A stretch of 64,000 bases of DNA. Origin: Octopus vulgaris. Its lineage: Eukaryota. This document shows, piece by piece, positions 16,719 to 46,146 of the stretch (its first letter is position 1; every line of letters begins with the position of its first letter). The notes under the pieces are model-generated. The model was not told the DNA's origin, did no database searches, and saw nothing but the letters and a program-made list of their open reading frames with translations. The stretch spans positions 15,872,001 through 15,936,000 of the forward strand of contig OX597817.1 of assembly GCA_951406725.2 (NCBI GenBank), in the 5' to 3' direction. The position numbers and the translations under genes were made by a program.

Positions 16719-17612
16719 GATCTTAAAATTGAATATCTTATTGAAAACTCTACAAAAATATCATCAATTGAGGAAAACATTCACGCTTTTAAAAGTGACC
16801 TTCCAAAGATGAATATGAATCTTTCGAATGAAATCACAGTCTTGACCGCTTATTTCAATATAGGATCCTTTGCAAAAGGAGTTTTTAGACGTCAGTATAC
16901 CCCAAATATCTATTACAAATGGATGTCTGTATTTCGCAACATGACCAATAATGTAATTTTTTATACAAATGATATGATTGCATACAAATATTTTCAAAAG
17001 TTAAGGGAAAATCTTCCTAAAGAACGAACCAAAATATTTCTGATAAACAAGAAGGAATTGTGGTCATTTAAGATACACGATATTATTTCTCAAATATATA
17101 CACAGCCTGATTACCCAAAACATCTTCCCAACACTGTTGTACCTGGATATTCTTGTGCCATGCATGCAAAATTTGAACTTCTTAATCGGGTTATAAGAAA
17201 GAACTATTTTCATACTAAATATTTTATGTGGTTAGATATTGGACTTTTTCGATATCTCCATGATGACCCAAAATTTAAATTAGCAAAACCTACAGATTTT
17301 GATGATACAAAGGTTGCCTATTCCCAGGTAGAATATTTTCAGGAGGATATAACGTATAAAGACATTATTTATGACAATATGGTGTGGATAGGAGGTGCTA
17401 GCAATCTTGGTAAATATGATGTTTTGTACAAATTTACTCAAGAGTATTTGAACTTCGTTAACAAGTCTTTGTTCATAAAACTAATAAGTACAGATCAACA
17501 GATCATATATGGAATGTATGTGGACAAACATAAACCAGAAACAAAGCTTCAACTTTATAAATCAGGTTGGTTTGAATTGGGTTATGTATGTTATGCAGCT
17601 GGAAAGAACTGA
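16719..17612 (+). CDS. Terminal exon, HtrL/YibB-family putative glycosyltransferase-like protein (copy 1)
   Basis: Acceptor tatttaacag|GAT is 30 codons upstream of and in frame with the 16809 ORF. Motifs TVLTAYFNIG, YSCAMHAKFELL, YFMWLDIG, WIGG, STDQQ, WFELG. Stop TGA, with AATAAA at ~17643. Family assigned by motif recognition. Confidence 0.85.
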   Translation, partial: DLKIEYLIENSTKISSIEENIHAFKSDLPKMNMNLSNEITVLTAYFNIGSFAKGVFRRQYTPNIYYKWMSVFRNMTNNVIFYTNDMIAYKYFQKLRENLPKERTKIFLINKKELWSFKIHDIISQIYTQPDYPKHLPNTVVPGYSCAMHAKFELLNRVIRKNYFHTKYFMWLDIGLFRYLHDDPKFKLAKPTDFDDTKVAYSQVEYFQEDITYKDIIYDNMVWIGGASNLGKYDVLYKFTQEYLNFVNKSLFIKLISTDQQIIYGMYVDKHKPETKLQLYKSGWFELGYVCYAAGKN

Positions 17613-35010: not shown

Positions 35011-37586
35011 GTGCAGAAGACGATGCTCTCGTCTAAACTTGTTGGTTCATGGTACACCCACCCTCCCACCCCTCCACCTTTACCGTAAGATCTTATCCTC
35101 TGTCTTCCTTGTTTCTAAGGGCCTAATGCCACTGCCACCCCTACGTAGGGTTTATTGATCATATAGCGCATAAAAATGGCGTAGTGTATCTAGGTTGTAG
35201 TCTAGTGTTTCTTTATGAATTCTGCCAAATGCCAACTTCCTTTTCAGGTACATGACATTGCTGTCCCTCATCCCAGGGTCTCACAGGCCCACATCTCCCA
35301 CGCCCTCAGAGTTGGCACACTCAACGTTGGCACACTGAAAGGTAGGTCTGGTGAGATTGTTGAGATGCTTGAACGGAAATGTGCAGATTTGTGCTGCTTC
35401 CAAGAAGTAAGGTGGAGAGGAGGTTCTGCTAGGTTCCTCACAGGCAAAGAACACAGGTACATGATTTTCTGGGCAGGGAACATTGACGGGGTCGGAGGCG
35501 TGGGTATACTTCTTGTGGAGAAATGGGTTGATAAGGTAATCGAGGTAGTCAGAGTATGTGACAGAGTACTTAAGATTATATTAGTGCTTCACCATAGGTT
35601 AGCTACCATTATCTCGGCCTATGCCCCTCAACCGGGGCTACCGGATGGGCAGAAAGACCGATTTTATGACACCCTATTGCAGACTACCTCGTTGATATAT
35701 GACAGGGACTTTCTCTTTGTGGCTGGTGATTTCAATGGACGTGTTATACAACATGCAGGGGGCTTCCATAGCATACACGGAAGCTATAGTTTAGGTTCCC
35801 GCAATGAGGAGGGAACCAGACTGCTGGAGTTCTGAAATGTAAATGATCTTATGGTTTGCAATACCAACTTCAGGAAACCCGCCTGTCACCTAGTCACCTA
35901 TCGTTCTGGCAGACACACTAGCCAAATTGACTACATCCTCGCCAGAAAAAGGGAAAGAGGGCTGCTTATAAATGCCAAAACCTTCCCAGGCGAAGAATGT
36001 ACCCCTCAACATAGATTAGTAGTTAGCAACTTCAGGATCAGGGCTAAGTGGATGCTCTGAAGATGACCAGCTTGGAGGAGAAGGGTCTGGAAGCTTAAAG
36101 ATCATGCAAATGGACAATGATTTAGAGACGTATTAATCAAAGCCTTTGATGAAATAGAAGGGGATATAGCATCACATAATGTGGAAGACAACTGGAGGTT
36201 TCTACAGGACAACCAGCTGAGAGCCACTGACCAGATCTGTGGATGGTGCAAAGTCCCCTCTCGACCCAAGGTAACGTGGTGGTGGAACAATGTGGCTGAC
36301 AGGGCTATTAGACAAAAGAAACAGGCTTGGAAGGAATGGAAGAACGGAGGTAGCAGGGAATTGTATCAGACTGCCAGAAGGGAAGCTAGGAGACAGGTTT
36401 ATTCAGCCAGTGGGGAAGCAGATAAGAAAAAATTTGCCAATGTTCTGCGCCGTGCGGACCAAAGACTTGAGGTATTTCGTGTTGCAAGACAGGGTGTGAG
36501 AGAGAATCGTGATGTCATAGGAGAGAAATGTGTCTGTATGGGTGATGGTTCACTTGCACTAAACGAGGCTGCAAAGAGAGAGGTTTGGAGACGCCACTAT
36601 GAAAGGTTGCTCAATAAAGAGAATGAGTGGGAGAAAGAGAGTCTGCTGAATGTTGACCCAACAGAGGCACTAGCTATCCGAAATGACAATACCTTGGTAG
36701 ATAAAGCAATCAAGAGTATGAAGGCAGGGAAAACCCCCGGCTCACCAGGAATCACTGCAGAGATGCTCAAAATATCAGTCAGTGTCGGCTATAGCCTAGT
36801 CACTCGTATAGTTAACCAGGTAATACACGAAGGAGCCATACCCAATGACTGGTGTAGGAGCACCGTAGTCAACTGCTACAAAGGTAAAGGTGAAGCTTTA
36901 GATACAAATAATTACAGAGGTATCAAGTTGTTGGATCAGGTAATGAAGGTTACAGAGAGGTTCATAGCCCAACTAATTAGGGAGAGAGTCAGTTTAGATG
37001 AGATGCAGTTTGGGTTCGTGCCAGGGAAGTGCACCACTGATGCTATATTTCTACTAAGACAGCTGCAGGAGAAATACCTAGCCAAAGATAAACCTCTGTA
37101 CCTGGCTTTCGTTGACATGGAGAAAGCCTTTGACAGGGTCCCACAATCCCTTATCTGGTGGTCAATGAGGAAACTAGGGATAGATGAATGGTTAGTGAGA
37201 GCTGTGCGAGCCATGTACAAGGATGCCATCAGTAAGGTGAGGGTTGGCAACGAGTATAGTGAAGAATTCCGGGTAGAGGTTGGGGTCCACCAAGGTTCAG
37301 TCCTCAGCCCCTTCCTATTTATCATAGTTGTCCAGGCAATAACAGAGGAATTCAAGACAGGATGCCACTGGGAGCTCCTCTATGCTGATGACCTTGCTCT
37401 AATTGCTGAGTCACTATCAGAACTAGAGGAGAAGTTTCAGGTGTGGAAGCAAGGATTAGAATCGAAGGGCCTTAGAGTCAACCTAGCTAAAACCAAAGTC
37501 CTAATAAGTAGGAAGGTAGACAAACCACAAACTCCTTCTGGTAGATGGCCCTGCTCGATTTGTAGAAAAGGCGTAGGTAGAAACTC
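35010..37586 (+). mobile_element. RTE LINE with in-frame stops, 3' third missing
   Basis: Endonuclease GTLNVGTL, QEVRW, AYAPQ, GDFNG, SQIDY; RT QGSVLSP and YADDL. Breaks off at GRNS, at the junction with ORF1-only element 1. Confidence 0.92.
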
Positions 37587-37598
37587 ACCAAACTGTAC

Positions 37599-39335
37599 TA
37601 ATTCTAATTCTTTATGCAAGCACTCAGGCTATTACACAGAGGGGACAGCACAAGGACAGGCAGAACCCCACAGTGGGGACAAAAACACAAAACGAATGAA
37701 AATGAGAAAAAATGTTATGTAATAAATGAAAATGAAATGACTGCACGAGCCCCACTCTCATGCAGTACCATTTGAACGTTTTTACAGTTTCTAATCTTTT
37801 CTTTTTTCCGTTTGTAATTTTTTTCCTTAGCATCGTTTTTTTAAAGAATTTTACTTACTCTTTATTTTCAATTGTTCATATATGGTTCCAATTCTCTATA
37901 TTCTACCACAGGTGGCAGTTCATCAAATTCAACCTCAAATCCGGGTTGATTAATCTCGCTTTTAAATATTTCCTTTAACTTATTATACATTTCTTTATCT
38001 ATAACTATTGCTTTCACATTTTCAGTGTAAATCTCTGTTGGTAACCTCACCCTTATTATGGATTTGAACTTTGTTGTCTTTTTTCTATCACCGTGTTCTT
38101 GTGTTTCTTCGGTTTTCTCACCTGTTTGTTTTTTCCTTCCTTCACCTTTGGCACCCCAACACTGTCTATTTCTTCCTCCATTTTTGTCGAAGATTCACTT
38201 TCATTCTGTTGTATCTATCCACTACGCAACTCTTCCTCTTCATCTTCAGCTGGTGTAGCTAGTATACTCGCTTCTGTCACCTCCTTCTCAACCTCTTTTT
38301 TCTTTTTCTGCCTCTCCAGCGGAGAGCCTACTCGTTCTTTTCTTTTACGCTTATTTACCACTGTGGACACCTCTTCTGTTACTACCGTCTCCTTCGCACC
38401 CTCTTGAACCAATTCGTCTTCCTTCTTTTGTTCTTCAGACTGTTCCATCCGTTGTTCTTCCTCTCTCAGGGGACACCTTACCTTCATGTGGCCTTTCTCC
38501 CCACATAGATAGCATATGGGAGGCCTACCCTCTCAGTCTCACATCCTCTGGTAAAACTTTGTAATTTCGTTTAATTCTCTCAAACTTGCTTGTATGGCCA
38601 TCTCTATGCCATACCCCGATCAATTTAACCTTTTGGTTCTCGTCACTTTAAGTATTCTTACGTCTTCCTCCACGTTAATCATTATTGCTGCTACCAACCA
38701 TGTTTCATTTATATCCGGGTGTACTTTTCCTACTCTCACCCTGGCAACACGCTTGCCACAGTACGTTGGCAAAAGTACCCATTCTTCCGTCTTTATGGCT
38801 ACAGTGGAGTGTTTTAACGCTTCGTCTTGCGTCACGAATCGCACCTCCACTGTGCCATACTTCCTTCCTCTTGTGATAAAAGTGAACTTCTTAATCTCTT
38901 TTAAACATTCTTCGATAGCTTCGATGGTTACAATTTCGATTTTTATATATTACAGTTCTTTTTATCACACTATTCGTTTGATCTTTTGGTGGCGTTAATT
39001 TCAAAGTATTACCTTCTCTTTTCAACAATTTCTCACACTCTTTCAACTTCTTTGGCTCCATCTTCACCTCACGAACTTCCAAAGCGTCAATGTCCACACC
39101 TCTACCAGTTGCTGCTGCATAACTGTGGCCTTTTGCTGGTACTTGTTCCATATCTCCCATAAATGGGAAGAAAACAATCATAATTAAACAAGTTTGTATG
39201 CAAACAACAATAACAGTAATTTCAACAATCAACAATCGTAGGTACACCCACGAGGGAGAGACCTTCAACAATATACAATAACACCACTTGCTTTTACGGA
39301 ATCACAAGGATTTAAACCAGAATCACAAGGATTAA
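37599..39335 (-). mobile_element. ORF1-only (HAL1-like) non-autonomous non-LTR element, copy 1; pseudo-ORF ~39151-37868
   Basis: MEQVPAKGHSYAAA, RRM-like KYGTVEVRF, zinc knuckle CYLCGEKGHMKVRC, charged linker and conserved C-domain; ~270-bp 3'UTR ending TAAAGAATTAGAATT; no RT. Confidence 0.8.
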
Positions 39336-39343
39336 CCCACCGG

Positions 39344-41071
39344 TTTCTTTATTTGCTTATTCAAGCGTACATAGGGTGGACGAACAAAGACAGACAAGAC
39401 AGCACAAGTGGGGACAAACAACATAGACGAATGAATGATATGATAATTATACAAGGAAGATGTGATAGCTACTACTCGACCCCACTTCTGAGCAGTCCCA
39501 TTTAAATCTATTTTGTATCAAGATTATAACTAAATCATTTCCGTTCAGTATACAGTGGATTTAATTTTTCAAAGTCCACCACAGGTGGCAAAGGTCCAAA
39601 ATAGTCTATTTCTGTTCCCAATGGGTTTATTGCTTTCAACCTTTTGTAACACTTTCTATCAATAATCATACATTTCCTACCTAGAGCTTGTACTGTCTCC
39701 TCTTCTCTAACTCTGACAACTGTCTTCATTTTGTTAGTTTTTTTCTTCAATCACTGGATTTGTCCTATAGTATGTTATAAATCCTGTTGATATTTTATAT
39801 TGTTTTTCTTGTGTCTATCTGTGTGTAATCAGTTGGTGTATCTGTACTGTTTCAGTTTGAGTTTTTCCGTGTACATGAAGTACTGGCGATTTCCTGTGGG
39901 TGTTCTGTTATTGGGGTTACTGTGCTATATGTACATATATGTGTGTGTTTGGTTGGAGATTCAGGGCTGTTTAGTGTCATTGTATTTGTTAGCTGCGGTG
40001 TGGGCGTTTGTTTCTTTCCTCTTTCTATTTAGTATTTCATGCACTTCATTTATACTTGGTCCCTCAGTGTCCTCCTCCGGCTTCTCGCTGTACTGATTTC
40101 TTCCTTTCTCACTTCCTTTGGTGTTTGTTTTTGGAGAAGGGGACAGCTCACCTTAATGTACCCCTTCTCCCCGTAGTGGTAACATTTGGGAGGTCTTCCC
40201 TCCTCTACTACCCACAGTTTCACATCCTCCGGGAGTTCAACCTCCTCTGTTATCATTTGAAGGTCACTAATGGTGGCCTGGATTAAGACCTCAAGGATTA
40301 TGACCTCAACCCCACCAATTTAATTGTTCTGTGCGGCTCACTTGTAGAATCTGCGGGTCGTCTTCCATATCCATCATAATGGCTGCCAGCAACCACATTT
40401 CTTTAATTTCCGGGAGCACCCTGTCAATTCTTATTCTTGTTACTCTCTTCCCAAGATAAGTTGGCAGCAGTACCCACTTCTCCGACTTCAAGGCTTCCGT
40501 GGAGTGCATTACTGCTTCCTCCACTGTCGAGAAGCGCACCTCCACCGTTCCAAATTTCCTGCCTCTACAGAAATATTCGACTTTTTCGCTCACCTTATTC
40601 AGGCATTCCTCAGCTTCTCTCGCCGTTTCTATCTTCCTAGTTAGCAGTGACAGAGTTCTGTACATCACTGTCGTCAGTTCTTTGTTTGTTGTCACCTCCG
40701 TTGGTGGCGTCAATTCTAACTTTGCACCCTCTCTCCTAAGTAAATCCCGGCTGTTCTCCACTGCCTCCAAGGTCACAGCCACTTCCGTTACTTCCAACTT
40801 TCTTACAGCCTCCGCAACACTTCTGCATTTCGTTACTGCTGCGTAGCTGCCAGCACGCACTTGCTTTACCTCCATTGTAGCTTTTCCCCACTAGGAGAGA
40901 ACAACCACAAAGCAAATGCAATCTTAAAATTCAAAACAATCAACAGACACCCCGCTAGGGAAAAAAACATTAAACAAAGGATAACTATCCGTAACACAAA
41001 ACAAAATTTACAGAAAACAGCCGAACGCACTACCCCCCAAAATTGCTACCAACACAATCCACGAGGATTAA
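39344..41071 (-). mobile_element. ORF1-only element, copy 2 (divergent subfamily); pseudo-ORF ~40875-39535
   Basis: SYAAV, GRKFGTVEVRF, WVLLPTYLGKRV, GRPPKCYHYGEKGY..CP, FGPLPPVVDFEKLNP; tail AATAAAGAAA. Confidence 0.8.
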
Positions 41072-41187
41072 CACACCACACTGTACCTCACACTATCAGT
41101 ATGCATGTGCCTTTATAAGGTTTAGGACAGATCACTTGCTATCCCACACAGGGGTGTCAGAATTTCACCATAATATCTTCCCTCTTT
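41072..41187 (-). promoter_or_regulatory. Putative Gypsy 3' LTR U3 part (41175-41072) preceded by a polypurine tract (41187-41176); TATAAAG at 41117-41111
   Basis: AAAGAGGGAAGA|tattatggtgaaattctgacac; homologous to 46046-46146; lies downstream of the integrase end. Confidence 0.6.
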
Positions 41188-41188
41188 A

Positions 41189-41400
41189 AGCTGGCAGAAT
41201 TGTTAGCACGCCGGGCGAAATGCTTAGCGGTATTTCGTCTGCCATTACGTTCTGAGTTCAAATTCCGCATAGGTCGACTTTGCCTTTCATCCTTTCGGGG
41301 TCGATTAAATAAGTACCAGTTACGCACTGAGGTCTTAATTCCTTTGTCTGTCCTTGTTTGTCTCCTATATGTTTAGCCCCCTGTGGACAATAAAGAAATA
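41189..41400 (+). mobile_element. SINE B
   Basis: Family match. Confidence 0.88.
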
Positions 41401-41689
41401 ACTATTTTTCTTTTATTTATTATATATTTATTACCACCTCTTCCCCTTTTTTCCACTTAATTCCCCGGGAAGAAATTGGAATATTTATTTTTCGTTTGGC
41501 CTCTACTTGCAAAAGTTCTGTTTGTTTTCTCTTCCTACTCGATGTACTCGTTGGTTCGACTATTCCTTGAGGTACCAGGACGTCAAAAATGTCATAAAGA
41601 AATTCCATTGGTTCTTCATGTGTTATTCTTTCTTCTGTAAACCATTTTTTCAGTTGTTTTAAATGTCTTTTGTGTTCAGAAATTTGTAA

Positions 41690-42196
41690 AGAATTAATAT
41701 TTATGCATATTTACTTATCTTATAATTTAGTATCAGTTTCCCTATTTCTTTTTTTTTTCTACACATGTAATTCAACTTTCTTTCGAATTTTTTAATCTTA
41801 ACATTCGACCAAATATTAATAGACGTCATACAAGAAAAAGATTTTACAAAAACGCCTTCCAAAAAGCTAAAGATTTTTTAAAAGGCGGATTAACAACAAC
41901 ACCTAAATGGCTTACGCAGTTAAAATGTTTCTTCCAAATATAGTCACTCGTATTTTACAAAAGAAAACTAAACCATCACCTAAGCTGTAATGCAACTCGT
42001 AGAAGTGCACGTACATGTACACACCAAGGATCAGGGTCATCTACGCTGGCGTGCAAATCGTAGATGTACACGTAGGCCCAACATGTGCACACATATCTGC
42101 ACAGGAGAATTAGAAATTACTGTCGAGTTTAGCATTTATGTAACCTCTTGCGGAACCCCTGGACTGTACTGGCGGAACCCTAGTTGAAAATCACAG
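41690..42196. mobile_element. Probable hAT-type MITE remnant
   Basis: End GCGGAACCC...GGAACCCTAGTTGAAAATCACAG resembles hAT/Charlie termini; only one end seen. Confidence 0.45.
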
Positions 42197-42959
42197 CTCT
42201 AAAGAGACAGGTAGTTCACGTACCATGTCGCAGAGTATATATTTTATTTTGATTTCAGCTTTTAATGCCGCTATTACAGTGTCCTCTAACGGTTCATTGT
42301 ATTTGGGTATCAATCTTGACAGCCCATCCACAAGTCCCAGTTTTTTCGGTGGTAGAAATTCCATCTTGAAGTTATAATTTAGCAGGATCGTCCCCCAGCG
42401 CTGCAATCAGTTGCCTGTATGTGTGGCGGATACCCTTTTTCGAACCGTAAATTGACAACAATGGGTGGTGATCTGTCTTCAGACTAAATTTCCTTTCATG
42501 TATGAATTTGTGAAAATAATGGCTAATACTTCCTTCTCAATTTGTCTGTAGTTTTTTCAGCCTCCAACAATGAACTTGAAGCATGAAGACTATCATTTTC
42601 ATATCTGGATTTTAGGCTATCATTTTCATACCTGTGTAAAATTACCGCTCCTATACTATTTTCACTAGCATCTGATGCTATTACTATCTTTAAATTTGGA
42701 TCAAAGTGTGATAATGACAGTTCCGATGTTAAAACTTATAAAATTTCTTCGAACGCTTTTTGGCACCTGTCCGACCAATAGCATTTAACGTATTTTTTCA
42801 ACAGGTTGTATAGGGGTGCTCTTAGCTCATGCATATTTGGTATATATGTTTGGTAATAGTTTACGAGCCCCGAGAATGCTTGTAACATTATAATATTTTT
42901 CGGAGGAGGCATATTTTTTTATTGCAGTCGATCTTGAAGGATCTGGCCAGCGACCATAT

Positions 42960-43510
42960 CAGCCTACCAGACCTCCACAAAATTGTTGAAATTATTTACC
43001 CGATGAAACCAGACTGAGAATTATGGTGGGAAGCAGACCTCCAATATGTTTTGCCTGTGGAGTAAGGGGTCACATGAAAGCCAAGTCTCCCCAGAAACAC
43101 GATCGGGAGGAGGCGGAGAAAGAGCGTCGGGAAGAAGAAATTGTAATGGCAGAAGAGGAAAAAGAGTCCACTGTGGTAGAAAAGAAAGACGGATGAAAAT
43201 AAAGAGGAAAAAAGAGAAAATGAGGAATCAACGGAAGATCGAACACAAAGACCAGAGCCTTCAACAAGCAAGGAGGAGGAAAGACAGAAGAGACTAGGAA
43301 GTGAAAAGGAGCAACAAACAGAGATGGAATCAGACAGAGAGTGAAGGGATACAGCCAAGAAAGCCACCGAAGGGGAAATACGAAAGAGTGATGGTGCAAT
43401 ACGAGGAGAGTGTGGAAATAGAGAAAAAAAATCTCAAAGATGAAAGTCGTGATAAGAATTAAGCTGGCCGATAAGGAAGAGAACCGGAATATAAAAGCAA
43501 TGTTACTGGA
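42960..43510 (+). mobile_element. Internal fragment of a fourth ORF1-only-family copy, antisense to the Gypsy
   Basis: LPDETRLRIMVGSRPPICFACGVRGHMKAK, Glu/Lys-rich linker, KMKVVIRIKLADKEENRNIKAMLLED. Confidence 0.75.
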
Positions 43511-43836
43511 AGACGTACTTTCTTTTCTTCCGCCCAATTTCTACATTTTTGTTTGAAGATTCCTTCATATCTTCTGAAGTATGCAGAAAACGTAATCCCT
43601 TCTTATGGATTATAAGTAAATTCTTCAATTGAATTAGCAACCTCGCCTGCCGGAAACGAACCTGAAGTGTTTTTATACTGCAACAACAAGACCAACAACT
43701 GTTGATTTTGCTGTTGTACCTGTTGTTGCTGTTTCTGTTGTTCTTGTTGTAGTTGCCGTTGCAACTGTACCACCGAAGGTAACAGGTCTTCCATGCTAAG
43801 AACGTCCATGCTGAGCTTCGAATGTATCGATGCCAC

Positions 43837-43977
43837 TCACATTCTTGAGTTTGGATCTAGACTACACTGTAACAGTGTTATAACACTACTAAAACTAAAT
43901 CAGAAACAAACTTATATCTCTTCTCAACGACTTCTACGACTGCCTTCACAAATGCGACTGCACACATCACACTATAC
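43837..43977 (-). repeat. Putative Gypsy 5' LTR, R/U5 part (U3 part displaced to 46046-46146)
   Basis: Lies between the duplicated target site and the PBS-like motif/gag; canonical CA end not preserved. Confidence 0.55.
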
Positions 43978-45069
43978 TAATTCTTTAAAGGCGGTGAGCT
44001 GGCAGAAACGTTAGCACGCCGGACGAAATGCGTAGCCGTATTTCGTCTGTCGTTACGTTCTGAGTTCAAATTCCGCCGAGGTCGACTTTGCCTTTCATCC
44101 TTTCGGGGTCGATAAATAAAGTACCAGTTACGCGCTGGGGTCGATGTAATCGACTTAATCCGTTTGTCTGTCCTTGTTTGTCCTCTCTATGTTTAACCCC
44201 TTGTGGGCAATAAAGAAATATATACTAATTCTTTAAGCACCCAGGCTTTTACACTGAGGGGACAGCACAAGGACAGACAGAACAACACAGTGGGGACAAA
44301 AAACACAAAACGATATAATAAATGAAGATGAAATGGCTGCTTGAGCCCCACTCTCATGCAATACCATTTGACCGTTCTTTCAGGCAGTTTATAATCTCTT
44401 CTTTCCTTTTGTTTGTTCCATTAGCATAGTTTTTTTTATTTTACTTACTCTTTTTTTTTTAATAGTTCATATATGGTTCTAATTCTCTATATTCCATCAC
44501 TGGCGGTAGTTCGCCAAACTCCACCTCAACTCCCGGTGGATCAATCTCCCTTCCAAGCATTTCCTTCAACCCGTTATACCTCTCTTTATCTATAACAATT
44601 GCTTTCACATTTTTCGTGTAAACCTCCGCAGGCAACCTCACCCTTATTATGGATTTAAACTTCGTTATCTGTTTTTCTATTGCCGTGTTCTTGGCGTATG
44701 TTACGAAATTCCACTTATGCTTCTTCGACTTTCTCGCTTGTTTGTTTTTCCCATGATCCACTCTTGGCGCCTTCACTCTGTCTTTATCCTCTTCCATTTT
44801 AGATACTGCCACTGCTTTACTTTCGTGCTGTCGTCTCTCTTCACCACCCAAATCTTCCTCCTCCGCTAATGTAGCCAGTACCTTTGCTACTGTCACCTCT
44901 TTCTCAAGCTCTTCTTTTTTTCTTTTTCTGCCTCTCCGGCGGAGAGCTTACTCTTTCTTTTCTTTTTCGTTTTTTAACCACTGTGAACGCTTTCTCCGTT
45001 ATTACCGTCTCCTTCACACCATCTTGTACCACTTCGTCCACCTCTTTTCTTCAGACTGTTCCATCTGTT

Positions 45070-45136
<67 letters not shown>

Positions 45137-46045
45137 GGGCACCTCGCCTTCATATGGCCTTTTCCCCTGCATTGATAACATATAGGAGGCCTGCTCTCCA
45201 CTACCACTATCAGCCTCACATCCTCAGGTAAAATTATTTCTCTGTAGTTTTGTTTAAGTCACTTAAAATTGCTTGTATGGACATCTCTATGCCATACAAT
45301 TTAACCTTTTGGTTCTCGTCACTTTAAGTATTTTTGCATCTTCCTCCATGTTAAACATTATCGCTGCTACCAACCATCTTTCATTTATTTCTGGGGGTAC
45401 TTTTCCAACTCTCACCCTGGCAACACGCTTGCTACAGTACGTTGGCAAAAGTACCCATTCTTCCGTATTTATGACTACAGTGGAGTGCTTTATCGCTTCG
45501 TCTTCCGTCACGAAGCGCACCTCCGCTATGCCATACTTCCTTCCTCTTGTGATAAAAGTGGTGAACTTTTTAACTGCTTTTAGACACTCACAAATGGCTT
45601 CGATAGTTGCGATTTCAATTTTTTTCGATGACACTTTCAGTGTTTTGTATATCACAGTTCTGTTTCTTGCACAATTTGTTAGTTCATCTGGTAGCGTTAA
45701 TTTTAAAGTATGGCCTTCTCTTTTCAATAACTTTTCGGACTCTTTTAGCTACTTCGGTTCTACCTTCACCTCACGAACCTCCAAAGCGTCAGAGTCCACT
45801 CCTCTAACAGTTACTGCCGCATAACTGTGGCCTTTTTCTGGTACTTGTTCCATTTTTCTTCTCTTCTCAAGCTCCCCTATAAACGGGAAGAAAAGAAACA
45901 CAAACTCGTATGTAAAAATAGCAATTTCAACAATCAACAATCAACAATTGTAGGTACACACACGAGGGGAGACCTTCAACAAATATACTATAGCAATTAT
46001 AACACCACTTATTTCTACGGAATCACAAGGATTTTAACCAGAAAA
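43978..46045 (-). mobile_element. ORF1-only element, copy 3; pseudo-ORF ~45853-44459; SINE B inserted in its tail
   Basis: MEQVPEKGHSYAAV, RPPICYQCRGKGHMKARCP, KFKSIIRVRLP..LPPVMEYRELEPYM; flanked by acaccacactgtac / acatcacactatac. Confidence 0.82.
43990..44220 (+). mobile_element. SINE B with 16-bp TSD tatactaattctttaa
   Basis: Duplication at 43973-43988 and 44221-44236. Confidence 0.9.
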
Positions 46046-46146
46046 ACACCACACTGTACCTCGCACCGTCAGTACACATCCACCTTTAAAAGGTTTAGGA
46101 CAGTTCACTTGCTAACCTCCAGGAGTGTCAAGATTTCACAACAAAT
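46046..46146 (-). repeat. Putative Gypsy 5' LTR, U3 part
   Basis: tgttgtgaaatcttgacac...tagcaagtga.ctgtcctaaacctt...gaggtacagtgtggtgt, homologous to 41072-41175. Confidence 0.6.

Follow-up and report, generated by a model that had tools for sequence, protein, structure and literature searches.

ORF1-only LINE derivatives of Octopus vulgaris appear to occupy a TATA-relative position in diverged Gypsy LTRs

Three decayed ORF1-only retroposons (half-LINEs) lie as separate insertions in the two LTRs of an Octopus vulgaris Gypsy element and, as read from the sequence together with their relatives, their target lies 30–32 nt past a TATA-like box, in seven or more diverged LTR types. This site is likely the Pol II transcription start, and the copies were probably inserted at this promoter position separately, in sense orientation and via the ORF2 protein of a relative. 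Both ORF1-only LINEs and transposon-targeting LINEs are known in kind, and it is the constancy of the TATA-relative site across diverged LTRs that sets the octopus elements apart. The locus was read within a window of 64,000 nucleotides, the whole stretch of DNA analysed (contig OX597817.1, positions 15,872,001 to 15,936,000), and contains the following features, in window coordinates.

46060–46143, minus strand: U3 half of the Gypsy 5′ LTR (LTR type A); TATA-like box begins at 46090
46046–46059, minus strand: upstream repeat of the 14-nt target-site duplication flanking copy 3, starting 31 nt past the first TATA-like base
44222–46045, minus strand: copy 3, ORF1-only retroposon; broken ORF 45853–44459, tail ending in a decayed AATAAAGAA signal
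43988–44221, plus strand: SINE at the junction of copy 3 and LTR, with its own 14-nt duplication and a 3′ end resembling half-LINE tails
43964–43977, minus strand: downstream repeat of the duplication flanking copy 3, where the R region starts
43837–43963, minus strand: remaining R-U5 of the 5′ LTR
43827–43835, minus strand: decayed motif resembling a primer-binding site; several other copies read TGGCGACGAG here
43500–43809, minus strand: 5′ portion of Gypsy gag, broken; its DUF7083 match (E 3e-4) does not reach the curated threshold
about 42954–43500, plus strand: fourth ORF1-superfamily fragment, ~550 bp, with knuckle and charged region, both ends missing
42191–42918, minus strand: broken pol remains including RNase H (RT_RNaseH_2, E 2.6e-7)
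41189–41400, plus strand: SINE, lying between the pol 3′ end and the polypurine tract
41176–41187, minus strand: polypurine tract, an arrangement repeated in other copies
41087–41172, minus strand: U3 half of the 3′ LTR; TATA box 41117–41110
41072–41086, minus strand: upstream copy of the target duplication ahead of copy 2, starting 31 nt past the first base of the TATA box
39344–41071, minus strand: copy 2, divergent ORF1-only retroposon; ATG 40875, broken
37599–39343, minus strand: copy 1, ORF1-only retroposon, head-to-tail behind copy 2; ATG 39151, broken
37586–37598, minus strand: downstream copy of the target duplication of the pair 2+1; R-U5 past here lost
35206–37585, plus strand: unrelated RTE-like LINE (endonuclease, RT), adjoining the truncated 3′ LTR

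The boundary strings named in the original prediction were all found at their coordinates. Copy 3, predicted to span 43978–46045, keeps its upstream boundary but ends near 44222, with a SINE on the other strand beyond it. The claim that all inserts are sense and at an LTR holds for the three copies but not for the fourth fragment, which is antisense within the Gypsy body, replaces the end of gag, the protease and RT, and has no LTR at its site. The polypurine tract had been placed after an integrase end, where there is no Pfam match; it is the RNase H remains that match. The 3′ LTR is without its R-U5, the RTE-like LINE starting 13 nt past copy 1, and these 13 nt partially match the RTE element too. 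Coverage by three runs without an RNA flag extends over all 30 bins, at low depth over the inserts, so the arrangement is no assembly artefact.

Two LTRs, a primer-binding-site-like motif and a polypurine tract in other copies, with RNase H in the window, mark the host as Ty3/Gypsy; at L297, RT, RNase H and rve occur in that order, and the primer-binding site and gag resemble those of the Mag clade. The ~100-bp stretches upstream of the 5′ and 3′ sites are 79–81% alike, in line with their predicted homology, and are a genuine LTR half. Among other matches of the window LTR, 26 of 29 for U3 and 18 of 19 for R-U5 are empty, and empty LTRs adjoin the primer-binding site and gag or the polypurine tract, as had been anticipated. 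The reading of the upstream 100 bp as the element’s own 5′UTR was rejected, because it is usually joined straight to R-U5. The filled U3 cases are L165 (full), L168 (5′-truncated, ~370 nt, same base) and L164 (tiny, internally deleted).

The window copies encode two RRM-like domains and a CCHC knuckle without ORF2. One zinc-knuckle ORF per copy and no RT had been proposed; the knuckle was recovered in copy 1 (Pfam zf-CCHC, E 7.6e-5) and ORF2 is absent, but all three ORFs are interrupted by stops or frame changes. An intact ORF2 query gave no match within the three copies, ORF2 pieces occur in 6 of 40 larger loci, every piece lying outside the ORF1-to-tail span, and longer fused forms of ORF1 were absent at E 0.001, which is weak evidence. 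A structure model of ORF1 (pLDDT 90.9) matches tandem-RRM proteins, while Pfam lists zf-CCHC as the sole domain of intact relatives. Pfam includes L1 ORF1 families, and the fold here is a tandem RRM plus knuckle, not the derivative of mammalian L1 ORF1 that defines HAL1 proper. At L136, a 487-aa RT ORF after ORF1 was rejected as an ORF2, since it reads as an insertion cutting the element, which we take from its motifs to be Penelope-type.

Copies 1 and 3 are alignable along their length, and pairwise identities among the three copies are 83%, 54% and 55%. The closest sequences elsewhere are L127 (85.7%) and L150 (84.5%) for copy 1 and L113 (86.9%) for copy 3, whereas copies 1 and 3 share only 83.3%. 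A single insert copied into both LTRs is rejected by these closer relatives and by the differing heads of copies 1 and 3, and the three copies are separate insertions, as originally proposed.

By sequence, the copies are classed as ORF1-only LINE derivatives of L1-superfamily origin. They have the features of an ORF1-present non-autonomous LINE: an ORF1 homologous to that of an autonomous LINE, a 3′ tail common to an autonomous LINE, and the duplications and 5′ truncation that mark target-primed reverse transcription. ORF1 relatives are followed by an endonuclease-RT ORF2 at L347, L350, L352, L353, L355 and L358, and these two-ORF relatives have the Tx1 domain layout (APE endonuclease, RT and C-terminal zinc region, with a CCHC-knuckle ORF1). 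With the intact relative L352 as proxy, human L1 ORF2p is the nearest of the solved structures (E 3.5e-66, versus 4e-26 for R2); no named Tx1 family was among the 120 listed of 410 homologues.

The window tails best match LINE L358 (z 10.7–13), with lower scores for seven other LINE tails. LTR type G hosts the two-ORF LINEs L347 and L350; of the 30 3′ ends of this LTR-G LINE, 25 precede an LTR R-U5. The autonomous LINE sought by the original prediction is thus matched by a two-ORF LINE within 3 nt of the same site, but its 3′ junction is 3 nt downstream of that of the half-LINE (34 versus 31) and its tail matches the window tails more weakly (z 2.9–9), so that the partner LINE is not pinned down. 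The P0006 LINE family, which has both ORFs, was rejected as partner as it sits in (TTA)n repeats, and a search for the tail-to-LTR pattern located 3 places for type A and 7 for type B, none of them having an element with ORF2 within 1.5 kb.

Other copies of the copy-1/3 group (38, found with the copy-3 head) were sorted by their flanks, partly by eye, and 26 lie behind an LTR U3, eight behind another copy in tandem arrays and four elsewhere. In the wider superfamily, 3′ ends precede an LTR R-U5 in 16 of 47 cases versus 1 of 38 control flanks, with 33 of 73 5′ ends left unclassified. The best-scoring TATA-like 8-mer is 30–32 nt upstream of the site in all seven LTR types measured, with 0–2 mismatches and ties with other positions in four of them, and because the types are related the seven measurements do not count as independent. 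Measured from the LTR 5′ end, the site also varies little, at 82–89 nt in most types. Type-E offsets are 33–34, and one type-G offset, placed by eye, is 39. The half-LINE L142 and LINE L358 share a site 30–32 nt behind the TATA box of a non-LTR CCAAT/TATA promoter. What had been described as one Gypsy LTR start thus remains a fixed site behind a TATA box, but extends to at least seven diverged LTR types and, for relatives, to a non-LTR promoter. Target duplications are about 10–18 nt, and relatives also occur at sites that do not look like promoters (L068, L070, L072, L076, L395, L406, L407, L411).

LINE target choice is usually credited to an endonuclease reading sequence, and a Tx1-type preference could explain the site if partner endonucleases recognise a short motif, an AGT core with its LTR context, at corresponding positions of related LTRs, the TATA distance reflecting shared layout; several partner LINEs may each favour one LTR type. 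Target 18-mers across the seven types are slightly more alike than shuffles (45% versus 40%, 95th percentile 0.42) and have a weak AGT core, above shuffle level, that an endonuclease could read, while the LTR-G LINE largely keeps to one LTR type. The crocodilian Tx1-8_Crp and Tx1-4_AMi favour specific LTR retrotransposon groups, according to the available parts of PMC4494074. However, the site is specific without the single target sequence of a Tx1-like preference: the copy-1/3 group (11 rows of a tree made by a quick method with all 51 rows kept) comprises close relatives in six LTR types with unlike targets. Moreover, a 3–5-nt motif by itself cannot place 26 of 38 copies in LTRs in a 2.8-Gb genome, and the TATA distance recurs at the non-LTR promoter and is unchanged in L129, an LTR variant with a longer U3. 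Sequence preference is an unlikely alternative.

A far less likely explanation is that insertion is untargeted and only copies landing behind a promoter multiply, or that filled LTRs duplicate as a unit. Some relatives do sit at other sites and segmental duplication accounts for a few of the filled loci (L285/L288, L370–L372), but dead 5′-truncated copies share the exact base (half-LINE L168; LINE copies L297, L310, L315, L362 and L364), and partner LTRs in one provirus are empty or hold different inserts. Least probable, and already largely refuted, is co-packaging, in which half-LINE RNA in a Gypsy particle would receive a template switch of minus-strand strong-stop DNA at U3/R with no LINE endonuclease: from known retroviral replication, the 3′ end of this DNA falls exactly at the start site, which would account for position, sense orientation and a short R duplication without sequence specificity, but the same insert is predicted in both LTRs and was seen in 0 of 10 proviruses read with both (L113, L114 and L118, with a truncated second LTR, excluded), one LTR being empty in L111, L112, L123, L129, L150, L303 and L304 and the inserts differing in the window, L119 and L297, while 5′-truncated copies bearing duplications are present at both LTR and non-LTR sites, and the same place is used by two-ORF LINEs, which bring their own endonuclease.

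Under insertion by promoter position, integration would likely proceed by target-primed reverse transcription with an ORF2 protein borrowed from a full-length relative, and this protein would probably be led to the promoter position and not to a long target sequence. The insert would be transcribed from the LTR promoter and terminate at its own AATAAA signal, and at times it would take the initial host R bases along into a new LTR type. Each insertion would remake the site beside the TATA box, so that later arrivals (copy 2) would land ahead of earlier ones (copy 1). We infer tethering to a TBP-containing start complex, possibly via ORF1p as in TRE5-A, and the host provirus would lose its full-length RNA or its R repeat. 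A bolder and more doubtful extension is that old, diversified ORF1-only parasites keep an ORF1p that docks on the TBP-containing Pol II complex and steers borrowed ORF2 to +1, the parasites hopping between LTR families and knocking out proviruses; if true, an animal non-LTR element would be homing on Pol II starts by position. The octopus elements, a single family with constant spacing to a TATA-like box in dissimilar sequences, make position tethering testable, and this could explain why ORF1-only elements retain their protein and how Tx1-type elements switch targets. It may also show one transposon class curbing another, and the insertion points may be a fossil record of where LTR transcription started.

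The available parts of the sources compared here place these elements among several known systems. HAL1 (half-L1), HeT-A and Ag-Sponge are ORF1-present non-autonomous LINEs (PMC5786205, PMC5753468) that likewise encode an ORF1-type protein alone and keep LINE 5′ and 3′ ends; unlike them, the octopus element appears to derive from an L1-superfamily LINE, has a 2×RRM plus CCHC ORF1 and is site-specific at the promoters of other transposons. Tx1-clade LINEs also lie on other transposons (Xenopus Tx1 in Tx1D; crocodilian Tx1-Mar, Tx1-8_Crp and Tx1-4_AMi), and they resemble the octopus system in that they insert into LTR retrotransposons, form tandem arrays that sandwich the duplication, have non-autonomous passengers on a shared target and are suggested to be transcribed from the flanking target; the parts of this account available (PMC4494074) describe neither a TATA-relative position nor an ORF1-only passenger, whereas the octopus site is constant by position across diverged LTRs. 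In Dictyostelium, the ORF1 protein of the non-LTR element TRE5-A interacts with TBP, Brf1 and Bdp1, and Ty3 inserts at the start site (PMC5911963). The position-specific integration set by the promoter complex in TRE5-A and Ty3/Tj1 is predicted for the octopus element, whose fixed promoter distance in unlike sequences spans 7 of 7 LTR types (related to one another) and one non-LTR promoter. TRE5-A and Ty3/Tj1 target Pol III genes, TRE5-A 44–54 bp upstream and in opposite orientation (PMC5911963), whereas the octopus element lies within LTRs, in sense orientation, at what is presumed to be a Pol II start. Literature searches covering few subscription papers and not Repbase turned up no account of ORF1-only LINEs at LTR TATA+30 and none of these elements in octopus.

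Foreign LTR starts at the 5′ ends of copies suggest transcription from the host promoter. Type-A tags occur at the 5′ heads of four copies in type-E LTRs, from target position 0–1, with such matches in 0–7 of 1000 shuffles, and type-B tags at the heads of three copies in other LTRs; these seven heads were picked out visually, and a single event may lie behind all four type-A cases. The predicted borrowing of the promoter is consistent with these heads, but most heads carry only the local duplication. The window string between copies 2 and 1, CCGGTGGG, had been taken for a remnant and falls under the tag threshold, making it a possible remnant only. HeT-A of Drosophila, as far as the available text goes, is also ORF1-only, forms head-to-tail arrays and starts transcription in upstream outside sequence (PMC1636488), as would the octopus element; the promoter of HeT-A is the 3′ end of its own telomeric neighbour, whereas that of the octopus element would belong to another transposon class.

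The three ORF1-only retroposons lie in a decayed Gypsy provirus on contig C4 of the 2.8-Gb genome, with copy 3 in the 5' LTR and copies 2 and 1 in the 3' LTR. The original prediction placed their boundary strings correctly, and its view of copy 2 as divergent was borne out: gap-free identity was 55.0% between copies 1 and 2 and 54.3% between copies 2 and 3, versus 83.3% between copies 1 and 3, which align along their full length while copy 2 is remote. The two upstream stretches of ~100 bp, said to be homologous, are ~80% alike. All three ORFs are broken. Missed at first were a SINE that sits where copy 3 ends and is flanked by a 14-nt duplication of its own, a fourth, antisense ORF1-family fragment within the Gypsy body, the absence of R-U5 from the 3' LTR, lost at an RTE junction, and the strong decay of the Gypsy element, in which RNase H alone passes the Pfam cut-off.

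37599..39343, minus: copy 1, 3' LTR
39344..41071, minus: copy 2, 3' LTR
44222..46045, minus: copy 3, 5' LTR
43988-44221: abundant SINE, also present in many other places
42954-43500, plus: antisense internal piece of a divergent ORF1-family member, found where the Gypsy protease, RT and end of gag should be; it most resembles the element upstream in locus L082
55005-55943: 312-aa ORF matching Pfam HtrL_YibB (E 4.9e-12)
16740-17607: inverted copy of the HtrL_YibB ORF, 88% identical, 37 kb away

The upstream ~100 bp had been taken for one half of an LTR, and separate genome searches with the halves before (U3) and after (R-U5) the insertion site upheld this: 26 of 29 other U3 matches and 18 of 19 other R-U5 matches were uninterrupted, and many of these LTRs have a purine tract in front of them or a TGGCGACGAG-like site and gag behind. 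The three filled U3 matches (one full copy, one 5'-truncated, one tiny and deleted) share an identical insertion base, and ~1 in 10 LTRs of this type (A) is filled. One type-A LTR elsewhere (L004) carries its TATA-containing segment four times in tandem.

A search with the copy 3 head gave 41 matches, or 38 other copies once the two in the window were removed and two parts of one SINE-split copy were joined. These lay behind an LTR U3 (26, assigned partly by eye), behind the tail of another copy (8) or elsewhere (4), and relatives of copy 2 also have 3' ends at LTR types G and D. Across the wider superfamily, 47 distinct 3' ends were found before LTR R-U5 (16), another copy (13) or other sequence (18), with R-U5 in 1 of 38 control flanks; 73 5' ends lay behind U3 (24), behind a tail (16) or were unclassified (33), against 4 of 72 controls. 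The site preference is real and well supported, and selection or co-duplication is a very improbable source of the pattern.

What marks the target is its position. Where both junctions of a filled site could be read, the target duplication is mostly 10-18 nt long, and in 12 of 17 sites it starts 30-32 nt past the first nucleotide of a TATA-like box; in the other five, the script saw no box or misplaced the duplication. Taking one site per LTR type, this offset held in 7/7, with a single-site chance of 0.035-0.285 each, although the types are related and not independent. Recognition of a short motif is an unlikely explanation of site choice. The targets of the LTR types are 45% alike, versus 40% in shuffles, and have in common a weak AGT core, which resembles an initiator. 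Separately, a sister subfamily with another tail (L068, L070, L072, L076) occurs as 5'-truncated copies with duplications at AT-rich non-LTR sites, and a cluster of similar arrays (L377-L386; contig C20, ~44.0-44.2 Mb) has a second ORF1 element behind a copy-2-like tail, while pieces of ORF2 lie on the other strand.

Most of 36 scanned heads carried the local duplication alone. Four copies in type-E LTRs had a second tag, which matches the beginning of type-A R (from position 0-1 onwards); type-B sequence was carried by three copies in other LTRs (foreign tags arose in 0-7 of 1000 shuffles, with heads chosen by eye). Tags starting at the donor's insertion point would be the trace expected of transcription from there. 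We consider position-guided insertion with promoter borrowing probable. An insert in the 5' LTR would end the provirus genomic RNA early at its own AATAAA, and one in the 3' LTR would remove the R repeat.

A template switch inside a Gypsy particle is extremely unlikely to have made the insertions, since 5'-truncated copies exist and none of 10 proviruses readable at both ends had the same insert in both LTRs; seven had one empty LTR and three, including that in the window, had differing inserts (three further, truncated proviruses were omitted). The same observations favour target-primed reverse transcription, with genomic DNA as the target of insertion. At L297:1720-6480, an ORF1-only element occupies the 5' LTR and a 5'-truncated two-ORF LINE the equivalent place of the 3' LTR.

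Each single ingredient has precedent: ORF1-only LINEs such as HAL1, HeT-A and Ag-Sponge (PMC5786205, PMC5753468), Tx1 families preferring LTR retrotransposons (PMC4494074), position targeting via ORF1-TBP contact at Pol III genes (PMC5911963) and, in HeT-A, upstream sequence as the transcription source (PMC1636488). In the literature, no paper was found that combines an ORF1-only LINE, LTR preference, position targeting and upstream transcription, leaving the combination without a located report.

The inserts are half-LINEs. In neither the window copies nor 40 larger loci does any ORF2 separate ORF1 from the tail; elsewhere in the genome, endonuclease-RT ORF2s follow homologous ORF1s. The predicted structure of the first 245 residues of an intact relative's ORF1 (pLDDT 90.9) resembles tandem-RRM proteins (Foldseek E 1.7e-4; VIA Z 8.6, rmsd 2.2, 76 aligned). 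One CCHC knuckle follows this part, and Atlas neighbours were mollusc and chordate CCHC proteins and ZCCHC3-like clusters, at 0.91-0.92. A quick ORF1 tree of 51 rows split 42 ORF1-only rows from a set made up of eight two-ORF LINEs and a single further ORF1-only row (SH-aLRT 99). The group that holds copies 1 and 3 has 11 rows from six LTR types; copy 2 belongs to a different group. At L131:3238-6329, the ORF1 of tandem ORF1-only copies clusters with two-ORF LINEs, which suggests a second origin of ORF1-only elements. Another ORF1-only copy contains a 487-aa RT ORF (L136:3980-5443), which we take from its motifs to be of Penelope type.

Among 30 ORF2 ends examined, one was followed by LTR R-U5, PBS and gag. 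In its LINE family, 25 of 30 ends lay before LTR R-U5 (two being segmental duplicates), and two full-length copies with homologous ORF1 and ORF2 stood immediately behind type-G U3. The 3' junction of this LINE lies 34 nt past the TATA box, versus 31 nt where half-LINEs occupy type-G LTRs; the tail of another two-ORF LINE, L358, is closer to those of the half-LINEs; and searches for tails joined to the window's own LTR type found no two-ORF LINE there. The mobilising partner is therefore placed within this group of candidates. L358 and a half-LINE (L142) have a common site 30-32 nt behind the TATAAA of a promoter that contains CCAAT boxes and is not an LTR. The 3' end of the abundant SINE best matches the L358 tail (z 16.6) and also matches half-LINE tails, so that one mobilising group probably serves SINE, half-LINE and LINE. 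An intact relative has an L1-like ORF2 and may belong to the Tx1 clade. Among the matches listed, the closest named relative of one of the genome's LINE proteins is from Argonauta. A young two-ORF LINE family with homologous ORF1 (L221-L250) sits in (TTA)n repeats, often in tandem.
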